A stretch of 64,000 nt of DNA from Alphaproteobacteria bacterium (lineage in GTDB: Bacteria > Pseudomonadota > Alphaproteobacteria > SHVW01). The stretch is from positions 6,885-70,884 of the forward strand of contig VGDO01000005.1 of the NCBI GenBank assembly GCA_016869645.1, read 5' to 3'. The position numbers and the translations under genes were made by a program. Shown here piece by piece: positions 3,879 to 12,202 of the stretch (position 1 is its first letter; each line of letters begins with the position of its first letter). The notes under the pieces were generated by a model. The model made no database searches. It saw only the letters and a program-made list of their open reading frames with translations, and was not told the origin of the DNA.

Positions 3879-5007
3879 AGGGATCGGCCGCGTCGCGCAG
3901 CCCGTCGCCCAGGAAGTTGAAGGCCAGGATGACGACGATCACCGGTACGGCGACGACGAGCAGCCATGGCGCCAATGCCAGCGCCTGGATGTCCTGCGCA
4001 TCCTGCAGCAGCACACCCCAGGAGATCGCCGGCGGCCGGAGGCCGAGACCGAGGAAGGACAGGGTCGTCTCGCTGATGATCATGGCCGGCAGCGCCAGGC
4101 TGATCGCGGCGATGATGTGCGACATGAAGGAGGGCACCATGTGCCGGAAGATGATGCGGAGCCGCGACGCGCCGGCGAGCTCCGCTGCGGTCACGAAATC
4201 CTCCTCGCGCAGCGCAAGGAAGCGGCCGCGCACCACGCGGGCGAGCTCGGTCCAGCCAATCAGCGAGATGATCACCGTGATCGCCATATAGACCTGGATC
4301 ACCGACCAGTCGTTGGGCAGCGCGGCGGCGAGGCCCATCCAGAGCGGAATGGTCGGGATCGAGCGCAACACCTCGATGATGCGCTGGATCACCGTGTCGA
4401 TCGCGCCGCCATAGAGACCGGAGATGCCGCCGAGCAGCACGCCGAGAAACAGCGAAAGCGCCACTCCAACCAACCCGATCGTCAGCGAGGTGCGCGTCGC
4501 CAGCATGAGGCGCGACCACACGTCGCGGCCGAGCTGATCCGTGCCGAGCAAGAACAACGCGTCCTCCGGCACGCCGCGATCGATGCCGAGCAGGTGACGC
4601 TTCGTCGCGATCAGGCCGAACAGCTCGTAGCCGTAGCCCTCGACGAACCAGGCGAGATAGCGCTTGTCCGACGGATCGGGCGCATAGACGAGCTTGAAGG
4701 TCCGCATGTCGCGCCGACCCTTGAGCGCGTAGACATGGGGCTTGAAGCTGCCATCCTCGTCGAACCAGTGGATCGTCTGCGGCGGGATGTAGCTGCGCGC
4801 AGAGTTGGTCGCGTGCGGCGACGTGATGGCGAGGAAGTCGGCGAACACCGCCACGAGATAGAAGAGGATGACGAGCACGCCGCTCGCGACGGCGAGCCGG
4901 TGCCGCCGCAGCCGCCACCAGGTGAGCTGAAGCTGGCTCGCGATCGCGATTTTCTCTTCGGCCGCCGTGACGAGCGGGACGGCCTGGTCGGCAACCGCGC
5001 CGCTCAT
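3871..5007 (-). CDS. ABC transporter permease (DppC/OppC-like, with N-terminal extension)
   Basis: The track ORF 3871..5778 is over-extended. The start was re-called at ATG 5007, which forms an ATGA overlap with the upstream permease stop. The BPD-transporter motif (EAA-like loop ...AAELAGASRLRIIFRHMVP) is present. Confidence 0.85.
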   Translation of the reverse strand: MSGAVADQAVPLVTAAEEKIAIASQLQLTWWRLRRHRLAVASGVLVILFYLVAVFADFLAITSPHATNSARSYIPPQTIHWFDEDGSFKPHVYALKGRRDMRTFKLVYAPDPSDKRYLAWFVEGYGYELFGLIATKRHLLGIDRGVPEDALFLLGTDQLGRDVWSRLMLATRTSLTIGLVGVALSLFLGVLLGGISGLYGGAIDTVIQRIIEVLRSIPTIPLWMGLAAALPNDWSVIQVYMAITVIISLIGWTELARVVRGRFLALREEDFVTAAELAGASRLRIIFRHMVPSFMSHIIAAISLALPAMIISETTLSFLGLGLRPPAISWGVLLQDAQDIQALALAPWLLVVAVPVIVVILAFNFLGDGLRDAADPYG

Positions 5008-5996
5008 TCGTGCATGCCCGCGCGGATGCGCGGGTCGATCCACATGAGAATCAGGTCGGATATGAACGTGCCGATCACGGTCAATATGCCGAGCAGAAGC
5101 ACGATCGTGCCTGCCAGGAACATGTCCTGGGCGAGCAGCGCGCGCAGCAGCAGCGGGCCGACCGTCGGCAGCGACAGCACGAGCGAGATGACGATCGAGC
5201 CGGAGACGACGAAGGGCAGCAGGTAGCCGATCGTGCTGGCGAAGGGGTTGAGCGCGGCGCGCACCGGGTACTTCATGACCGCCCGCCACTCGACGAGGCC
5301 GCGCGCACGCGCGGTCGTGACATAGGGCCGGCGCAGCTCGTCCAGCAGATTGGCGCGCATGATGCGGATGAGCTGCGCCGTGCCGGCCAGCGCCAGGATG
5401 ACGGCGGGCAGCGGCAGATGCTTCATCAGATCCCAGACCTTGCCCCAGGACCAGGGCGCCAGCTGGTAGTCGGACGAGAACAAGCCGCCGATGTTGAGAT
5501 CGAACAGCTTGAAGCCGAAATACATGATGATCAGCGCCAGCAGGAAGTTCGGCACCGCGATGCCGACGAAGCCGACGAAGGTGAAGATGTAGTCGGCGAA
5601 CGAGTACTGGCGCACGGCCGAGTAGATGCCGATCGGCAGCGCGATACCCCAGGTGATGATGATCGCCGCGAACGAGATCACGATGGTCATCCACAGCCGG
5701 TCGCCGATCACTTCGGTCACCGGCCGGTTCCATTCCATCGAGGCGCCGAAATCGCCCTGCACGACCCTGATGATCCACTTGCCGTACTGAACCCAGACAG
5801 GCTGGTCGAGCCCGTAAAGCTGTCGCAACGCCTGGGCCTCCTCGAAGCGGACGACCGACCCCGAGGCGGAAAGCTGCACGATATAGGCGTCGACGAAGTC
5901 GCCGGGCGGGAGCTGGATGATGACGAAGGTAACGACCGAGATCGCCCAGATGGTGAGGAGGGCGAGAATGAGGCGCCGGACGATGTAGGCGATCAT
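5004..5996 (-). CDS. ABC transporter permease (DppB/OppB-like)
   Basis: MIAYIVRRLILALLTIW... with six TM segments, which is the typical DppB architecture. Confidence 0.9.
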   Translation of the reverse strand: MIAYIVRRLILALLTIWAISVVTFVIIQLPPGDFVDAYIVQLSASGSVVRFEEAQALRQLYGLDQPVWVQYGKWIIRVVQGDFGASMEWNRPVTEVIGDRLWMTIVISFAAIIITWGIALPIGIYSAVRQYSFADYIFTFVGFVGIAVPNFLLALIIMYFGFKLFDLNIGGLFSSDYQLAPWSWGKVWDLMKHLPLPAVILALAGTAQLIRIMRANLLDELRRPYVTTARARGLVEWRAVMKYPVRAALNPFASTIGYLLPFVVSGSIVISLVLSLPTVGPLLLRALLAQDMFLAGTIVLLLGILTVIGTFISDLILMWIDPRIRAGMHE

Positions 5997-6054: not shown

Positions 6055-8115
6055 TCAATTCTTGTAGTACCAGGTCTCCGGATGCGCGCCGCCCGGCGTG
6101 CGGCAGTGCTGGGCGATGCAATTGCGCGACGGGACGTTGCCGAGCCGCTCGCTGACCAGCCTCACGCCCATCAGAGCCGGCGACTGGCCGACGGTTCCGA
6201 TCGCGTACTGCTGATCGATCAGGATCTTCCAGATCTCCTGCGCGGTCTTGACACGATCATCGGACTTCTGGCCGGCGGCGGACTGGTAGAGCTCGAAGAT
6301 CTTCATGATGTTCGGATCGTCGGGCTTCTTGCCCTGCGTGCCGCCCGAATTGAACCACTTGGCGTGCTCCGGACCCATGAACGCCTCGGTGGGATCGACC
6401 GGAATGGCGTGACGCGGGAAGAGATAAAGCAGCTCGGTCCCGCCATTGTTCCACACCATGATGTGGTGCTCGTTGTTCTGGGTCCGCGTGAAGGCGAGAT
6501 TGCGCTCAGTGTCCCGCACGTCGGCCTGGATGCCGACCTTGGCCCATTGATCGGCGACCATCTCGCTGATCTTGGGCCAGGGCAGGAAGGCTTGAACCGC
6601 CTGGACCTGCAGGCGCAGGCGCTGGCCGTTGTCGGTGCGCACGCGGAAGCCCTGGGCGTCCTTCTTGGCGAGCCCGATCGCATCGAGCATCTCGTTGGCC
6701 TTCTTCTGATCGAAAGTCGACCACTTCTCGCGCCAGCCGGGGCCCGGGAAGTAGGGCAGTGCCTCGCCCGGCGCCGTCGAGCCAGGGGTGGCGACGCCGA
6801 GCCAGAAGGTCTCGTTGAGCTGCTTGCGATCGACCGCGAGCGACAGCGCGCGCCGGAAGTCGGCGTTGCGCAGCCATTTCGCGATCTCGGGATCGGCCTC
6901 GAAGCTCTGGTTGAAATGATAGATCGCGTCGGTGCCGTTGAGCGCCAGGTCGAGATGGACCTTGTACTTGCCGCGCGTCTGGTTCTCCAGGATGACCGGC
7001 AGCTTGCCGATGTCGATGTGGCGCTCCTGCAGGTCGTACTCGCCGGCCATGGCGCGCAGGTTGAGAACCTCGAGGTTCTCCGCGAGCGTCATGGTGACGC
7101 GATCGAGATAGGGCAGCTGGTTGCCCGCCGGGTCGACGACCCAGTAGAACGGGTTGCGCTCCATGACCCAGATCGCGTTGTTGATCGGCTGGACCGTGCG
7201 CCACGGCCCGAGCACGGGAAGCGCCGGGTTGAGCGTCCAGTCCTTCTTGGCATGGAAGCGCGTCAGCCAGGTGTCGAAACCCTCCGCCTTGGCCGCGGCA
7301 TTGGCGGCCTCGACGCCGCCGGCATATTTCGGCAGGAACTGCTTGAGATAGTGCGCCGGCGCATAGGCGCCATGGCTGCGCTTGTTCGACTGCCGCACCG
7401 CCTGGCCGCCGCCGATGAGGGTGTCGCCCGCCATCAGGTCTTCGAACAGGTAGAAGGGCACGTCGAACACGAAATTGACCGTGTAGTCGTCGACCTTGAC
7501 GATCCGGCCCGGCTTGCCCTGCGGGGTCATATCGGGAATGCCCTGGGGCAGGATGTCCTTGTTCGAGTAGATGTCCTCGAACCAGAAGACGAAGTCGTTG
7601 GCCGTCATCGGCGCACCGTCCGACCATTTCAGGCCCTTGCGCAGAAAGAGCGTGAAGGTCTTGCCGTCGTCACTCATCTTCCACGCCTTGGCGAGCGACG
7701 GGTTTGGCTTGGCGCCGGTGTGATCGACGAGGAGCGGACGGTCGGAGGCGTTCAGGCGATTGCCGTTCTCGTCGTCGCCCGGGCCGGTGAAGCCGCGCCG
7801 CCACGTGCCGCCGTACTTGCCGATCTCGCGCACCGGCTTGATGACCATCAGATCCTCGGGCAGGCGATCCTTGACCGGCGGCAGCTTGCCTTGCTTCACG
7901 AGTTCGGCCAGCTGCGGCGCCTCGTTGAAGGTCTTCGGCCACTGTGCCGGGTCGGTGATGATGGTGATGCCCTCGGGCTGGCCGACCAGCCCCGACTGGC
8001 TGAGCGAACTCTGAGCCAGGGTTTCGGGCGCCGACGCAATACCGAAGACGAGCGCGGTGCCCAGCAGCAACCGGGCCAGCATGCTTCGCCCGAGTGTCAC
8101 AGTGCCGAGATTCAT
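6055..8115 (-). CDS. ABC transporter substrate-binding protein, family 5 (large, ~686 aa)
   Basis: Start re-called at ATG 8115 (GGGAGG RBS), giving the signal peptide MNLGTVTLGRSMLARLLLGTALVFGIASA. The body shows SBP_bac_5 homology. It lies upstream of permB on the same strand, so this operon is flanked by two SBP genes. Confidence 0.85.
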   Translation of the reverse strand: MNLGTVTLGRSMLARLLLGTALVFGIASAPETLAQSSLSQSGLVGQPEGITIITDPAQWPKTFNEAPQLAELVKQGKLPPVKDRLPEDLMVIKPVREIGKYGGTWRRGFTGPGDDENGNRLNASDRPLLVDHTGAKPNPSLAKAWKMSDDGKTFTLFLRKGLKWSDGAPMTANDFVFWFEDIYSNKDILPQGIPDMTPQGKPGRIVKVDDYTVNFVFDVPFYLFEDLMAGDTLIGGGQAVRQSNKRSHGAYAPAHYLKQFLPKYAGGVEAANAAAKAEGFDTWLTRFHAKKDWTLNPALPVLGPWRTVQPINNAIWVMERNPFYWVVDPAGNQLPYLDRVTMTLAENLEVLNLRAMAGEYDLQERHIDIGKLPVILENQTRGKYKVHLDLALNGTDAIYHFNQSFEADPEIAKWLRNADFRRALSLAVDRKQLNETFWLGVATPGSTAPGEALPYFPGPGWREKWSTFDQKKANEMLDAIGLAKKDAQGFRVRTDNGQRLRLQVQAVQAFLPWPKISEMVADQWAKVGIQADVRDTERNLAFTRTQNNEHHIMVWNNGGTELLYLFPRHAIPVDPTEAFMGPEHAKWFNSGGTQGKKPDDPNIMKIFELYQSAAGQKSDDRVKTAQEIWKILIDQQYAIGTVGQSPALMGVRLVSERLGNVPSRNCIAQHCRTPGGAHPETWYYKN

Positions 8116-8328
8116 GATGCCTCCCTTTCCACCGGATTGGCGATGCGTCCGGCGTTCTTGCTGCATTAGAGCACATGTTCGGCAGACGGGGTCAACCCCA
8201 GGCAAATGTGCTGATTGTTGGCAAATCGACGACGAAACCTGCCGTGCCGGCGCCGCAACGACAAGCGTTCGGAATCGGCAACTTCGACTTGCTGGCTATC
8301 TGATCTTGCAATGGGTTGCTGACGCGCG

Positions 8329-8652
8329 TCAGCGGAGCAATCGATGCTGAAGGAGGGTGCGGATATCCCTTCTTCCGTCCAGGACGCAGTAGATGAGAAC
8401 GCGCCGACCGTCTATCCGGTAGACAATTCGGCAGGGCTTCCAGTGGATCTCCCGGTAGTCCGAGATCCCGATTCGTGCCAGTTCCTTCGGCACGTTGCCA
8501 CGATCGGGAAAGATCGAGAGCTTTCGGCAGGTCCTCTCGAGGTTAGCCAAGATATGCGCGGCTCGATCGATGGCGTCATACGCGGCGACATGCCGGCAGA
8601 TGTCCTCGATATCTCGCTCGGCATCATCGGTCATCAAGACCTGAAATGCCAT
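8329..8652 (-). CDS. Type II toxin, RelE/ParE family
   Basis: 107 aa beginning MAFQVLMTDDAERDIEDICRHVAAYD and ending ...YRIDGRRVLIYCVLDGRRDIRTL. This is the ParE-like pattern. It sits 9 nt downstream of the antitoxin gene on the same strand, in a low-GC segment. Confidence 0.75.
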   Translation of the reverse strand: MAFQVLMTDDAERDIEDICRHVAAYDAIDRAAHILANLERTCRKLSIFPDRGNVPKELARIGISDYREIHWKPCRIVYRIDGRRVLIYCVLDGRRDIRTLLQHRLLR

Positions 8653-8661
8653 GACTTGGGA

Positions 8662-8934
8662 TCAGGGTTTGATGCGGCCGCGAATGCGTGCAAACGCCGC
8701 TCGTGCCGGACCCAGCCTGCCCGTGATGACGCTCTGGTTGCCGAGCGCTAGGATCTTCAGCAGTGCCAGAGTTTCCTGTTCCTGCTCAAAGCTGGCGATG
8801 TCCTGCAACACGGCCTTCGCTTCGCCGCGGACGGTGAGAATGACTGGCTCGCCATGCTCATCGAGTCCGCGAATGACCTCCGGAGCGTGAGCCTTGAGAT
8901 AGCTGATTGGCTTGACCTTGCCGGCGAGCTTCAT
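8662..8934 (-). CDS. Type II antitoxin, Phd/YefM family
   Basis: 90 aa beginning MKLAGKVKPISYLKAHAPEVIRGLDEHGEPVILTVRGEAKAVLQDI, which is the Phd/YefM fold signature. It lies immediately upstream of the ParE-like gene. Confidence 0.75.
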   Translation of the reverse strand: MKLAGKVKPISYLKAHAPEVIRGLDEHGEPVILTVRGEAKAVLQDIASFEQEQETLALLKILALGNQSVITGRLGPARAAFARIRGRIKP

Positions 8935-8999
8935 TGCCGACCTCCTTGCTGATCGGACCTATTTTAGTCCGGATTCAGTCCGATGGGAAGCTTCCCGGG

Positions 9000-9578
9000 T
9001 CACGCCGGCCGGGACTGAGTCCCATGTGCGATGTGCTCGAACGATTTCCTGCATTCGTCAACAACCGAGTCGAGCCACTGAACATACTTTCCACAAGCAG
9101 TCACGATGTCCTGACCGGCAAGCTCTTCGATCTCTGAAAAGACCCCTTTGACGGTGCATAGGGCGATCACGCGCCTCTCCTTTAGCATTGCCCTGTTCGC
9201 CTCGGTGCCATCAATTGGAACGATTTCGACTTTGCCTGGCGCGTCAGTTAGAAGCACAGCCGCAATGTTTGGATTTGATGGAGGAATTTCGATTGTCGCT
9301 CGAGCTTGCGCCGATACTGTGCCGCGCTTCTGAGATCGATTCCTGGCGTCAGTCATTGCGCCGAGAATCGGTTCGATCTCTGCGGTTGGCGCTTTGCTGT
9401 CGTACCATTCGTTCCAGCCCGCGACATCGGCGTATTCCGCCTTCATTACCCAGGTCACGCTTCTTGCCGAGCTGATGAAGGCGTTGAGGTAGTAGTCGAA
9501 CTCAGGAAACTTTGGACGTGCTTCCAGGTGGCGAAGGAAAAATCGCGCCTCCTCAAGCTTGCTTTCCGTCAATGTCAT
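9000..9578 (-). CDS. Hypothetical protein (192 aa), orphan gene in the low-GC islet
   Basis: Clean ORF with AT-richer codon usage (~53% GC against ~67% in flanking DNA). It runs the same way as the TA pair, 65 nt upstream of it. No family was recognised. An R-x4-H motif (RFFLRH) occurs at residues 12-17. Confidence 0.55.
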   Translation of the reverse strand: MTLTESKLEEARFFLRHLEARPKFPEFDYYLNAFISSARSVTWVMKAEYADVAGWNEWYDSKAPTAEIEPILGAMTDARNRSQKRGTVSAQARATIEIPPSNPNIAAVLLTDAPGKVEIVPIDGTEANRAMLKERRVIALCTVKGVFSEIEELAGQDIVTACGKYVQWLDSVVDECRKSFEHIAHGTQSRPA

Positions 9579-9633
9579 CTTTCACCATGAGATTGTGCAG
9601 CACCAATCATTCTTGCCAACGCCCTCGGGGTAG

Positions 9634-11658
9634 CTACCGCACCCGCTTCCGGAAGCCCGTCGTCGTGAAGCGCTGATGCCCGTGCTTGCGGCCGAGCCGC
9701 TTGCCTTCGCCGCCGCCCGTGCCGGTGCCGGCAGGCTGCCACAGCGGCACGAGCTGGTGCTTGCCCGGGCCGATCAGGTCGGCGCGGCCCATGCGCTTCA
9801 GCGCGTCGCGCAGCAGCGGCCAGTTCTCCGCGTCGTGATAGCGCAGGAAGGCCTTGTGCAGCCGGCGCTGACGCAGATTGCGCACGATGGGAACCGGCTC
9901 GGATGCGCCGCGCCGGACCGCGCGCAAGGGGTTGACGCCGGAATGGTACATCGCGGTCGCCAGCGCCATGGGCGAGGGCAGGAAGGTCTGTACCTGGTCG
10001 GCGCGATAGCGGTTGCGCTTCAGCCACAGCGCGAGGTTCATCATGTCCTCGTCGGTCGTGCCCGGGTGCGCCGCGATGAAGTAGGGGATCAGGAAGTATT
10101 CCTTGCCGGCCTGCTTCGCCGCCTGGTCGAACAGCTGCTTGAAGCGCTCGTAGGCGCCGATGCCGGGCTTCATCATCTTGGTGAGCGGCCCGTCCTCGGT
10201 GTGCTCCGGTGCGATCTTGAGATAGCCGCCGACGTGATGCGTCACCAGCTCGCGCACATAGGCCGGGCTCTTGACCGCGAGGTCGTAGCGCACGCCCGAG
10301 GCGACCATCACCTTCTTGACGCCGGGCACCTGGCGCACCTTGCGGTAGAGCCCGATCAGCGCCTCGTGGCTCGTGTTCAGGTTCTCGCAGATGCCGGGAT
10401 AGACGCAGGACGGCCGCCGGCAGGCTGATTCGATCTTCGGGTCCTTGCACGCCATGCGGTACATGTTGGCGGTTGGCCCGCCGATATCGGAGATGATGCC
10501 GGTGAAGCCCTTGGTCTTGTCGCGGATCTCGCCGATCTCGCGTACGACCGATTCTTCCGAGCGGCTCTGGATGATGCGGCCCTCGTGCTCGGTGATCGAG
10601 CAGAACGAGCAGCCGCCGAAGCAGCCGCGCATGATGGTGACCGAGAAGCGGATCATGTCCCAGGCGGGGATCTTGGCATCGCCATAGCGGGGGTGCGGCG
10701 CCCGCGCATAGGGCAGGCCGTAGATGCCGTCCATCTCGGGCGTGGTCAGCGGGATCGGCGGCGGCGTCAGCCACAGCTCGCGGTCGCCGTGGCGCTGCAC
10801 CAGTGCCCGCGCATTGCCCGGATTGCTTTCCCGGTGGAGCACGCGGCTGGCACGCGCATAGGCTTCGGGGCTCTTCTCGACGTGATCGTAGGCGGGCAGG
10901 CGCACGACCGTGTTGCCCGGCCGCAGGCGCGCGCCCTCGTCGGCCGAATCGATGTCCTCGGCGCTGGCTTCGGTCCAGCCCTCCGGCACCGATGATTTCA
11001 GAAGCGCCACGCCGCGGATGTCGTCGAGCTCGGAAGGAGCGGCACCCTGGGCCATGCGATGCGCCACCTCGACGATGGCGCGCTCGGCATTGCCGTAGAG
11101 AAGAATGTCGCCCTTGGCGTCGGCCAGGATCGAGCGGCGCACCTTGTCCGACCAGTAGTCGTAATGCGCGATGCGGCGCAGCGACGCCTCGATGCCGCCC
11201 AGGACCAGCGACACGTCGCGATAGGCCTCGCGGCAACGCTGGGCATAGACGATGACGGAGCGGTCCGGCCGCTTGCCGCCCTCGCCGTCGGGCGTGTAGC
11301 TGTCATTGTGCCGGAGGCGACGGTCGGCCGTGTAGCGGTTGACCATGGAATCCATGTTGCCGCCGGTGATGCCGAAGAAGAGCACCGGCCGGCCGAGCGC
11401 CTTGAACGGCTCCGCACTCTGCCAGTCAGGCTGGGCGATGACGCCGACGCGGAAGCCCTGCGCCTCGAGCAGCCGGCCGACCAGCGCCATGCCGAAGCTC
11501 GGGTGGTCGATATAGGCGTCGCCGGTCACCAGCACGATGTCGCACGCATCCCAGCCGAGCTCGTCCATCTCGGCGCGCGACATGGGCAGGAACGGCGCCG
11601 TGCCGAACCGGTGCGCCCAGTGCTTGCGGTAGGAAAAGAGCGGCTTGGCCTGGTCCAT
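9634..11658 (-). CDS. ygiQ: YgiQ family radical SAM protein (UPF0313)
   Basis: The N-terminus ([62 protein letters not shown]) matches YgiQ. The radical-SAM CxxxCxxC motif (CFGGCSFCS) and the ~674 aa length also fit. Confidence 0.9.
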
Positions 11659-11773
11659 GGCGGAAGCTTGTGAGCCATGGCTGAGCCGGCGTCAATCGCC
11701 GTTCGTCGCGATGGACCGTCACACGGCGGCAGACATAAGATAGGACTCTGGTCGACCTCAGAATTTGGATCGC

Positions 11774-12202
11774 ATGGCCCTTTCTAAAAAGCGCAAACCG
11801 GCTCGGCGAAAATCAGCGCGTCAGGAAATCTCGGTGCCTGGCCTCAACCCGCCCATCAGCCACTATACGGACGCGGTTCGCTTCGGAAATCTGCTGTTCT
11901 TGTCCGGGCTGGCACCGCTTGACGCCAAAGGACGTTTGGTTGGCGGCAGCGATCCCGCCAAGCAGACCCTTAAGATTTTCCGCAACATGAAGCGAATTCT
12001 GGATGCGGCGGGCGTCGGCTTTGGCGATGTTCTCAAGGTGACCGTGTATCTGACGCATATCGCCGACCGGCCGAAGATCAATCCTGTACGTCAGGCATTC
12101 TTTGGCAAATCGCGACCGGCCAGCACGCTCGTCGAGGTCAGCAACCTGGTGATTCCAGGCATGCGCGTCGAAATCGAGGCGGTAGTCGGGTTGCCTGATT
12201 GA
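11774..12202 (+). CDS. RidA/YjgF family reactive-intermediate deaminase
   Basis: ...PISHYTDAVRFGNLLFLSGLAPLD...VTVYLTHIADRPKINPVRQAFFG...RVEIEAVV is a YjgF/chorismate-mutase-like signature. The track ORF starts at TTG 11765, and the first ATG is 11774. Confidence 0.8.
   Translation: MALSKKRKPARRKSARQEISVPGLNPPISHYTDAVRFGNLLFLSGLAPLDAKGRLVGGSDPAKQTLKIFRNMKRILDAAGVGFGDVLKVTVYLTHIADRPKINPVRQAFFGKSRPASTLVEVSNLVIPGMRVEIEAVVGLPD

Follow-up and report, generated by a model that had tools for sequence, protein, structure and literature searches.

The window, by which we mean the whole 64,000-nt stretch of DNA analysed, carries on one strand a gene for a protein related to the N-terminal part of phage lambda Ea47 and, beyond it, genes for a Phd antitoxin and a ParE toxin. 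The positions of all features are collected in Table 1. An earlier note on this DNA, made from the letters alone, had claimed an ORF of 192 aa here; the ORF is present and starts with ATG, its N-terminus, SKLEEARFFLRHLEARPKFPEFDYYLNAFISSARSV, reads as quoted, RFFLRH string included, and the Phd/ParE genes lie as described, on the same strand with the ORF 65 nt upstream of them (gap 8935-8999). The coding sequence call was based on the ORF list, a homologue alignment that begins at the same methionine, a match to the Pfam family PF26900, and an hhalign alignment to lambda Ea47. Beyond parE lies the gene for an SBP_bac_5 solute-binding protein of an ABC transporter.

Table 1. Features of the Ea47-like gene and its neighbours, in window coordinates.
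Feature	Coordinates	Strand	Remarks
Promoter-like site TTCCCA-17-TAAAAT	8961..8989	-	Inside the 65-nt gap, upstream of phd; consensus match only
Perfect 12-nt palindrome GGGAAGCTTCCC	8985..8996		3 nt past the Ea47-like stop codon; overlaps the -35 of promoter-like site 8961..8989
ParE toxin	8329..8652	-	PF05016, E 2.8e-15
Phd (Phd/YefM) antitoxin	8662..8934	-	PF02604, E 1.2e-11
Ea47 N-terminal-like CDS (PF26900 family), 192 aa	9000..9578	-	ATG 9576-9578, TGA stop 9000-9002
Helix 4, residues 158-189 (predicted)	9012..9107	-	Conserved C162, Y165, C176
Variable insert of about 70 residues (85-157)	9108..9326	-	Between helices 3 and 4; sequence conservation poor
R79-N-R-S-Q-K84 codons	9327..9344	-	R-x4-[K/H] at the C-terminal end of helix 3 (69-84); candidate HEPN-type active-site motif
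Helix 2, residues 26-49 (predicted)	9432..9503	-	R39, S40, E48; most conserved stretch YYLNAFISSARSVTWVM
Helix 1, residues 2-19 (predicted)	9522..9575	-	E10, F14; contains RFFLRH (9528-9545)
Promoter-like site TTGGCA-16-CACAAT	9592..9619	-	Between the ORF start and the stop of ygiQ, a gap of 55 nt; consensus match only
YgiQ-type radical SAM gene	9634..11658	-	Upstream of the ORF, same strand

GC content is 0.53-0.55 across the ORF, against 0.64-0.72 in the flanks, and GC3 is 0.61 in the ORF, 0.71-0.73 in parE and phd, and 0.88-0.91 in the flanking SBP and YgiQ genes. The ORF, parE, and phd are all foreign by composition, the ORF more so than the toxin-antitoxin (TA) pair. The AT-richer codon usage that had been said to match the rest of the islet is confirmed relative to the flanks, but the match to the islet is not exact, the ORF being more AT-rich than the TA pair itself. 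The ORF was acquired horizontally and lies in or beside a small islet between ygiQ and the ABC-transporter binding-protein gene. None of the 80 closest ygiQ relatives has an Ea47-like gene downstream; these relatives are at most 87% identical, are also without the SBP gene, and provide no empty site from which to read the boundaries of the islet. Flanking direct and inverted repeats around the islet were short and at chance level only. A search for RYYYAAC/GTTRRRY cores revealed no attC-like site within window 7001-11000, and by this test the window gene is not an integron cassette.

Family membership and distribution of relatives

The protein had been taken for an orphan with no recognisable domain, a description that homology searches overturned. 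In a collection of 5.8 billion proteins, 19 homologues were found at E 1e-122 to 1e-5, comprising relatives that are 26-41% identical, with E values down to 1e-30, and another that is 99% identical. Homologues at E 1e-30 to 1e-23 are spread across many phyla and carry the invariant residues described below. A family profile searched against 1.84 billion cluster representatives (50% identity) matched 3385 at E<=1e-3 and 149 at E<=1e-30, and almost all of 150 representatives among the matches listed are 175-230 aa long. Precomputed, unmarked matches to PF26900 (Phage_lambda_Ea47; E<=1e-5) were present on the window protein and on most relatives. Pfam scans of the ORF and its relatives gave no PF26900 match because the copy of Pfam that was scanned is without that model; lambda Ea47 itself went unmatched in it. 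Using hhalign, the family was aligned to residues 8-117 of lambda Ea47, with a probability of 88.9% (E 2.4e-6) from 81 sequences and of 92.4% (E 5.1e-7) from 150. There was also a weak PHROG match (phrog_19262, a 410-position profile, E 0.004); an NCBIfam scan of the window protein gave no match, and no informative fusion domains were found in longer family members or in lambda Ea47. One cluster member, MBM3596935.1 from an Alphaproteobacteria MAG, is named "hypothetical protein" at NCBI. The family is already catalogued, as Pfam PF26900 and PHROG 19262, with no function reported for Ea47 in the literature searched, and the window gene is another member of it; the same searches found no functional data bearing on a function or defence role for Ea47.

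The N-terminal 100-110 residues of lambda Ea47, the product of ea47 in the b region, are homologous to the window protein and carry, as it does, the R-N-x-x-x-K motif (SRNTIEK in lambda), the invariant Trp, and a helix 2 of the ARSVTW type. Each of the two proteins is the product of an accessory gene of mobile DNA. Lambda Ea47 differs in being 410 aa long, with the alignment ending near residue 117, whereas the window protein, at 192 aa, has its own insert and closing helix. The short form was found in two IMG/VR contigs by pattern scan and is mostly chromosomal. The annotated products of ea31 and ea59, which stand beside ea47 in lambda (L012:5510-7974; NC_001416, 24509-26973), are an HNH endonuclease and an AAA family ATPase, a pairing that we take to resemble ATPase-plus-HNH defence systems such as Septu.

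The other loci analysed comprised 21 genome loci, two viral contigs (one being the same element as genome locus L023), and eight metagenome contexts. The genome loci belong to Proteobacteria, Bacillota, Nitrospirota, Verrucomicrobiota, Gemmatimonadota, and one Nitrososphaeraceae archaeon. In a Burkholderiaceae MAG (JAHCKM010000002.1; L013), the relative is a single-ORF integron cassette within a large chromosomal cassette array (L013:4383-15983), which contains 23 copies of a 109-nt attC repeat with GCCTAAC...GTTAGGC cores and hairpin potential. The ORFs between the repeats of this array are co-directional, about 90-200 aa long, and nearly all without a Pfam match. Repeats that resemble attC but have looser cores (TAAC...GTTCCGGGCC...GCGTTA) were also found between small co-directional ORFs in Marinobacter sp. 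(NZ_OZ245884.1; L017:5669-15011), and to judge from these repeats the relative there is probably an integron cassette as well. An Abi_C-like protein is encoded in the Marinobacter array, at a distance of 2.5 kb from the Ea47-like gene, and is a homologue of the Abi_C found beside the relative at L004.

At L004, genes for AIPR, DUF6602, HNH_2, and Abi_C lie upstream of the relative and a type I restriction-modification (R-M) system lies downstream. The contig P0005 carries NurA/HerA, a TGT-like gene, and DarT/DarG, and locus L045, inserted in a carbamoyl-phosphate synthase region, carries a MjaI-type R-M system, a TIR_2 protein, DUF6602, and a Schlafen-like gene (SLFN_AlbA_2). DUF6602 (PF20247) occurs 3-5 kb from the Ea47-like gene, not adjacent to it, in two unrelated defence islands (L004:3073-3960 and L045:11016-11837). 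A distant member of 240 aa (L009:7603-9647, L011:1052-3096) is preceded at 2 nt by the end of a 131-aa ORF and followed, 37 nt on, by a SIR2_2 gene; the three genes may form an operon in Bacteroidia. Further neighbours of relatives include integrases, IS21/rve transposases, a T4SS coupling protein, a prophage large terminase, a D5-type primase, and a ParB-methylase, and at some loci the neighbours are housekeeping genes, such as FtsH in L014. Defence-type contexts account for about 4 of roughly 12 annotated contexts, a proportion that is anecdotal and without a background control. The picture that emerges is of a self-sufficient, often transferred accessory gene, frequently situated in variable or defence regions.

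In a single case, the metagenome contig P0016, an RlaP gene (PF10127) lies 60 nt upstream of the Ea47-like gene on the same strand (genes 4110-5063 and 5124-5690). RlaP is, we presume, a nucleotidyltransferase-type family, and the pair would then be reminiscent of MNT-HEPN pairs.

Conserved residues, predicted structure, and comparison with HEPN domains

Residue conservation was counted in an HMM alignment of the window protein and 161 relatives (162 sequences in all, fewer where a residue is missing). R39, W58, and R79 are invariant (162/162), as is A33 (161/161), and E10 (154/155), S40 (153/162), E48 (158/162), and F14 in helix 1 are nearly so. Position 84 is occupied by Lys in 152 and by His in 10 of the 162 sequences (151 and 10 of the 161 relatives alone). 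Towards the C-terminus C162 (129/152), Y165 (144/152), and C176 (130/150) are kept in about 85-95% of sequences.

Two AlphaFold2 runs agree, one with 20 sequences (pLDDT 84.4, pTM 0.76) and one with 150 (pLDDT 87.2, pTM 0.80). In the predicted models the core of the protein is a four-helix up-down bundle (residues 2-19, 26-49, 69-84, and 158-189). Helices 2 and 3 are separated by one more, short helix (residues 55-61), which carries the invariant Trp. The insert is predicted to form two strands (residues 91-97 and 142-149) and two short helices (104-111 and 126-133), and pLDDT is 62-73 over residues 100-140. The two conserved Cys residues of helix 4 are 14 residues apart; the codons for residues 162, 165, and 176 are at window 9093-9095, 9084-9086, and 9051-9053. 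The Cys and Tyr residues of this helix may be further active-site or metal-binding residues.

Searching with the ten relatives that have His at position 84 led to a sister clade of 397 proteins, all annotated as PF26900 or as hypothetical only. In this clade Arg at position 79 is invariant (113/113), position 84 is His in 97 and Lys in 14 of 113, and position 165 is His in 48 and Tyr in 46. These counts make R-x4-[H/K] the signature of the family, with the window protein and lambda Ea47 in the Lys branch.

The HEPN hint in the earlier note rested on the R-x4-H spacing of RFFLRH. Arg is found at position 12 in 38 of 154 relatives (39 of 155 with the window protein) and His at position 17 in 8 of 154 (9 of 155); because neither position is conserved, RFFLRH is a chance occurrence of this spacing and not a HEPN motif. 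What remains of the hint is carried, with modest support, by a different motif, R79-x4-K84, which stands where HEPN domains have theirs. HEPN domains have an Rx4-6H catalytic motif at the end of helix 3, a usually polar residue following the motif Arg, a conserved acidic residue in helix 2, and often extra elements inserted between helices 2 and 3 (PMC3710099). The counterparts in the Ea47-like family are R79 and residue 84 ending helix 3, the Asn at position 80 (60 of 161 relatives), E48, and the helix at residues 55-61. In the window protein the Arg and the position of the motif agree with Rx4-6H, and position 84 is Lys instead of His.

Among characterised HEPN proteins, the comparison is closest to the single-gene proteins of abortive infection (AbiV, AbiD/F, AbiU2, AbiJ) and to MNT-associated toxins (e.g., 4nqf, 7ae2, 5yep). 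The likenesses are a bundle of four helices, predicted to run up and down and to have an additional element after helix 2; a conserved Arg that closes helix 3 together with a His (in the sister clade) or Lys (in the clade of the window protein) five residues on; a conserved acidic residue in the predicted helix 2; and the occurrence of R-M and Abi gene neighbours and of integron cassettes. Also comparable is a HEPN family (PDB 3jrt, PMC3710099) whose small helical protein is likewise encoded by a one-gene integron cassette. On the other hand, the window protein has Lys in place of the catalytic His, its 70-residue insert lies between helices 3 and 4 whereas HEPN inserts usually lie between helices 2 and 3, and Ea47-like genes as a rule are without the adjacent MNT-type antitoxin of the MNT-associated proteins. 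Nor did a HEPN Pfam model match consistently when the protein and sets of 20 and 81 relatives (the sets at E<=10) were scanned, the isolated matches among relatives (PaREP1 at 0.12, HEPN_AbiA_CTD at 0.035) being at noise level.

Searches of PDB sequences with the protein and two family profiles found nothing; matches to designer PPR proteins were discarded as repeat artefacts. Foldseek comparison of the predicted model with PDB and BFVD gave no significant match, and the model resembles HEPN domains no more closely than it resembles unrelated helical bundles. The R-x4-[H/K] pattern at the HEPN position is the strongest argument for a HEPN-like active site, and the chances that the core is a HEPN-type bundle with an R-x4-K variant of the catalytic motif appear about even.

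Proposed role of the Ea47-like protein

The best reading of the window gene is an autonomous mobile accessory gene, possibly encoding a HEPN-like defence or toxin effector. Taken as a whole, the evidence is best explained by a stand-alone Ea47 N-terminal-like protein that is a divergent HEPN-type conflict effector, to which we assign a probability of roughly 0.4. The bundle would then be a divergent HEPN-type domain, in which R79-x4-K84, possibly with E10, R39/S40, E48, and Y165, would make up a site that binds or cleaves RNA. As a single-gene effector of the abortive-infection or toxin kind, the protein would stay inactive until triggered, and the element most likely to provide sensing or specificity would be the variable insert. 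That it is a conflict effector at all (a defence or abortive-infection protein, or an RNA-acting toxin) with the insert as its sensor is likewise a tentative assignment. The suggestion that the ORF might be a stand-alone defence gene is plausible but circumstantial: relatives occur in defence islands, prophages, and mobile elements, but the window protein had no match in PADLOC-DB 2.0 at E<=1.

The main rival to the conflict-effector reading is a non-catalytic helical-bundle protein of mobile elements and prophages, with an immunity, anti-defence, regulatory, or adaptor role, whose R39/W58/R79/K84 surface would bind a protein or nucleic-acid partner without cleaving RNA. Such a binding protein fits both the change from His to Lys, which lambda Ea47 shares with the window clade, and the many loci in prophage or mobile-element backbones, beside terminase, primase, ParB-methylase, and transposase genes. 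It is also consistent with the failure of Foldseek to yield a specific fold assignment, with the position of lambda ea47, a neighbour of ea31 and ea59 in the b region, which is non-essential, and with the contacts of Ea47 with lambda N and U listed from yeast two-hybrid work (PMC3224144). However, R-x4-H/K at the exact HEPN position, with His dominant across the sister clade, is unexpected for a mere scaffold, and the invariant charged residues E10, R39, E48, and R79 would suit an active site or a ligand site better than an interface for protein binding, which would vary. Also against it is the presence of the gene in chromosomal defence islands and in an integron cassette, at a distance from any phage, and on balance we consider a non-catalytic role somewhat less likely than a conflict effector.

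The conflict-effector reading has a wider and more speculative form, in which PF26900 as a whole would be an unrecognised HEPN branch whose catalytic His has changed to Lys in a large clade that includes lambda Ea47 and the window protein. The short 190-aa forms would be self-contained, single-gene abortive-infection or toxin RNases that have been dispersed in integron cassettes, as accessory genes of prophages, and as cargo of defence islands. We regard this as rather improbable. If it holds, it would give the first functional handle on lambda ea47, and the lambda homologue would make testing easy in a model phage. The family comprises thousands of clusters from bacteria and archaea and is a one-gene unit that moves via integrons, prophages, and defence islands; if R-x4-H/K marks an RNase site, it would constitute a new single-gene conflict system. 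The R-x4-H/K observation, together with the integron, defence-island, and prophage distribution, provides a testable hypothesis for the family.

Relation to the Phd and ParE genes

The earlier note had raised the possibility that the ORF is a third component of the TA pair. In that role, as a regulator, chaperone, or second toxin, it would be co-transcribed with phd and parE, as could be expected from the shared strand, the 65-nt gap in which a sequence scan found no terminator-like site, the foreign composition common to all three genes, and an arrangement kept in all near-identical metagenome contigs. The proposal did not survive comparison with other loci. The Ea47-like/Phd/ParE arrangement was found only in short metagenome contigs with an identical or 99%-identical protein and in a contig of 6.2 kb whose identity to the window is 99.95% over 6162 nt; these near-identical contigs represent the same strain. 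Searches with jackhmmer, with the window's Phd and ParE as queries, against the six-frame translation of 480 kb (flanks of up to 10 kb) found no Phd/ParE near 34 other loci. A census of 141 neighbouring ORFs with Pfam and PADLOC found no family recurring in more than two, and when the neighbours in 29 loci were compared all against all, no partner occurred in more than three loci, the one that reached this number being an integrase. A recurrent partner gene is absent from about 28 independent loci other than that of the window. The largest cluster of apparent conserved neighbours proved to be an antisense translation of the Ea47-like gene itself and was discarded. The co-occurrence of the gene with ParE/Phd pairs in other genomes, a check that the earlier note had proposed, thus showed no conserved linkage, and because such linkage is absent the third-component reading is largely refuted. 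The single-gene cassette of the Burkholderiaceae array argues in the same direction, and the difference in GC3 between the ORF and the TA genes suggests separate origins.

The control signals also speak against a common unit. A promoter consensus scan found two sites, with 0.6 expected, one in front of each unit (Table 1). The site at 9592..9619 is followed by the ribosome-binding site of the ORF, GGTGA, 3 nt ahead of its ATG, and the phd ATG is preceded by a strong AAGGAGG ribosome-binding site. A promoter-like site, a palindrome over its -35, and AAGGAGG, all within the 65-nt gap, argue for a control region of the TA pair's own, and the palindrome may serve as the Phd/ParE operator. As consensus matches, the two promoter-like sites fit two independent units, although transcription may also read through from the ORF into phd, since a terminator was not found. 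Taken together, these observations leave a third-component role very improbable.

Phd and ParE (8329..8934) form a complete type II pair, which the Ea47-like gene adjoins without being its partner. The pair and the gene occupy the same strand of one foreign islet and are each of a kind typically carried by mobile DNA, but the TA module has no homology to or conserved linkage with the Ea47-like gene and is complete alone. We are highly confident that the ORF is a real, horizontally acquired PF26900-family gene that is functionally independent of Phd/ParE. The window gene adds nothing to Phd/ParE biology; what is of more use in the result is the family.

That the ORF might be a spurious or decaying frame in AT-richer intergenic DNA, as the omission of it by one metagenome gene caller in favour of a 62-aa ORF could suggest, is effectively excluded by conservation and has a negligible probability, since the sequence in the miscalled contig is intact and identical, thousands of full-length homologues keep the invariant residues, the structure model is confident, and the start codon is the N-terminus of the family. 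The miscalled copy (L040:3332-3910; JGI Ga0194126_10027192) is on the contig that is 99.95% identical to the window, where the 62-aa ORF was placed over the intact 192-aa gene; because the caller missed an intact copy here, automated annotation under-reports the Ea47-like gene. Upstream of ygiQ and divergent from it lies a gene of the L-PSP (RidA-like) endoribonuclease family (window 11765-12202, forward strand; also L040:708-1076), an ordinary housekeeping context.
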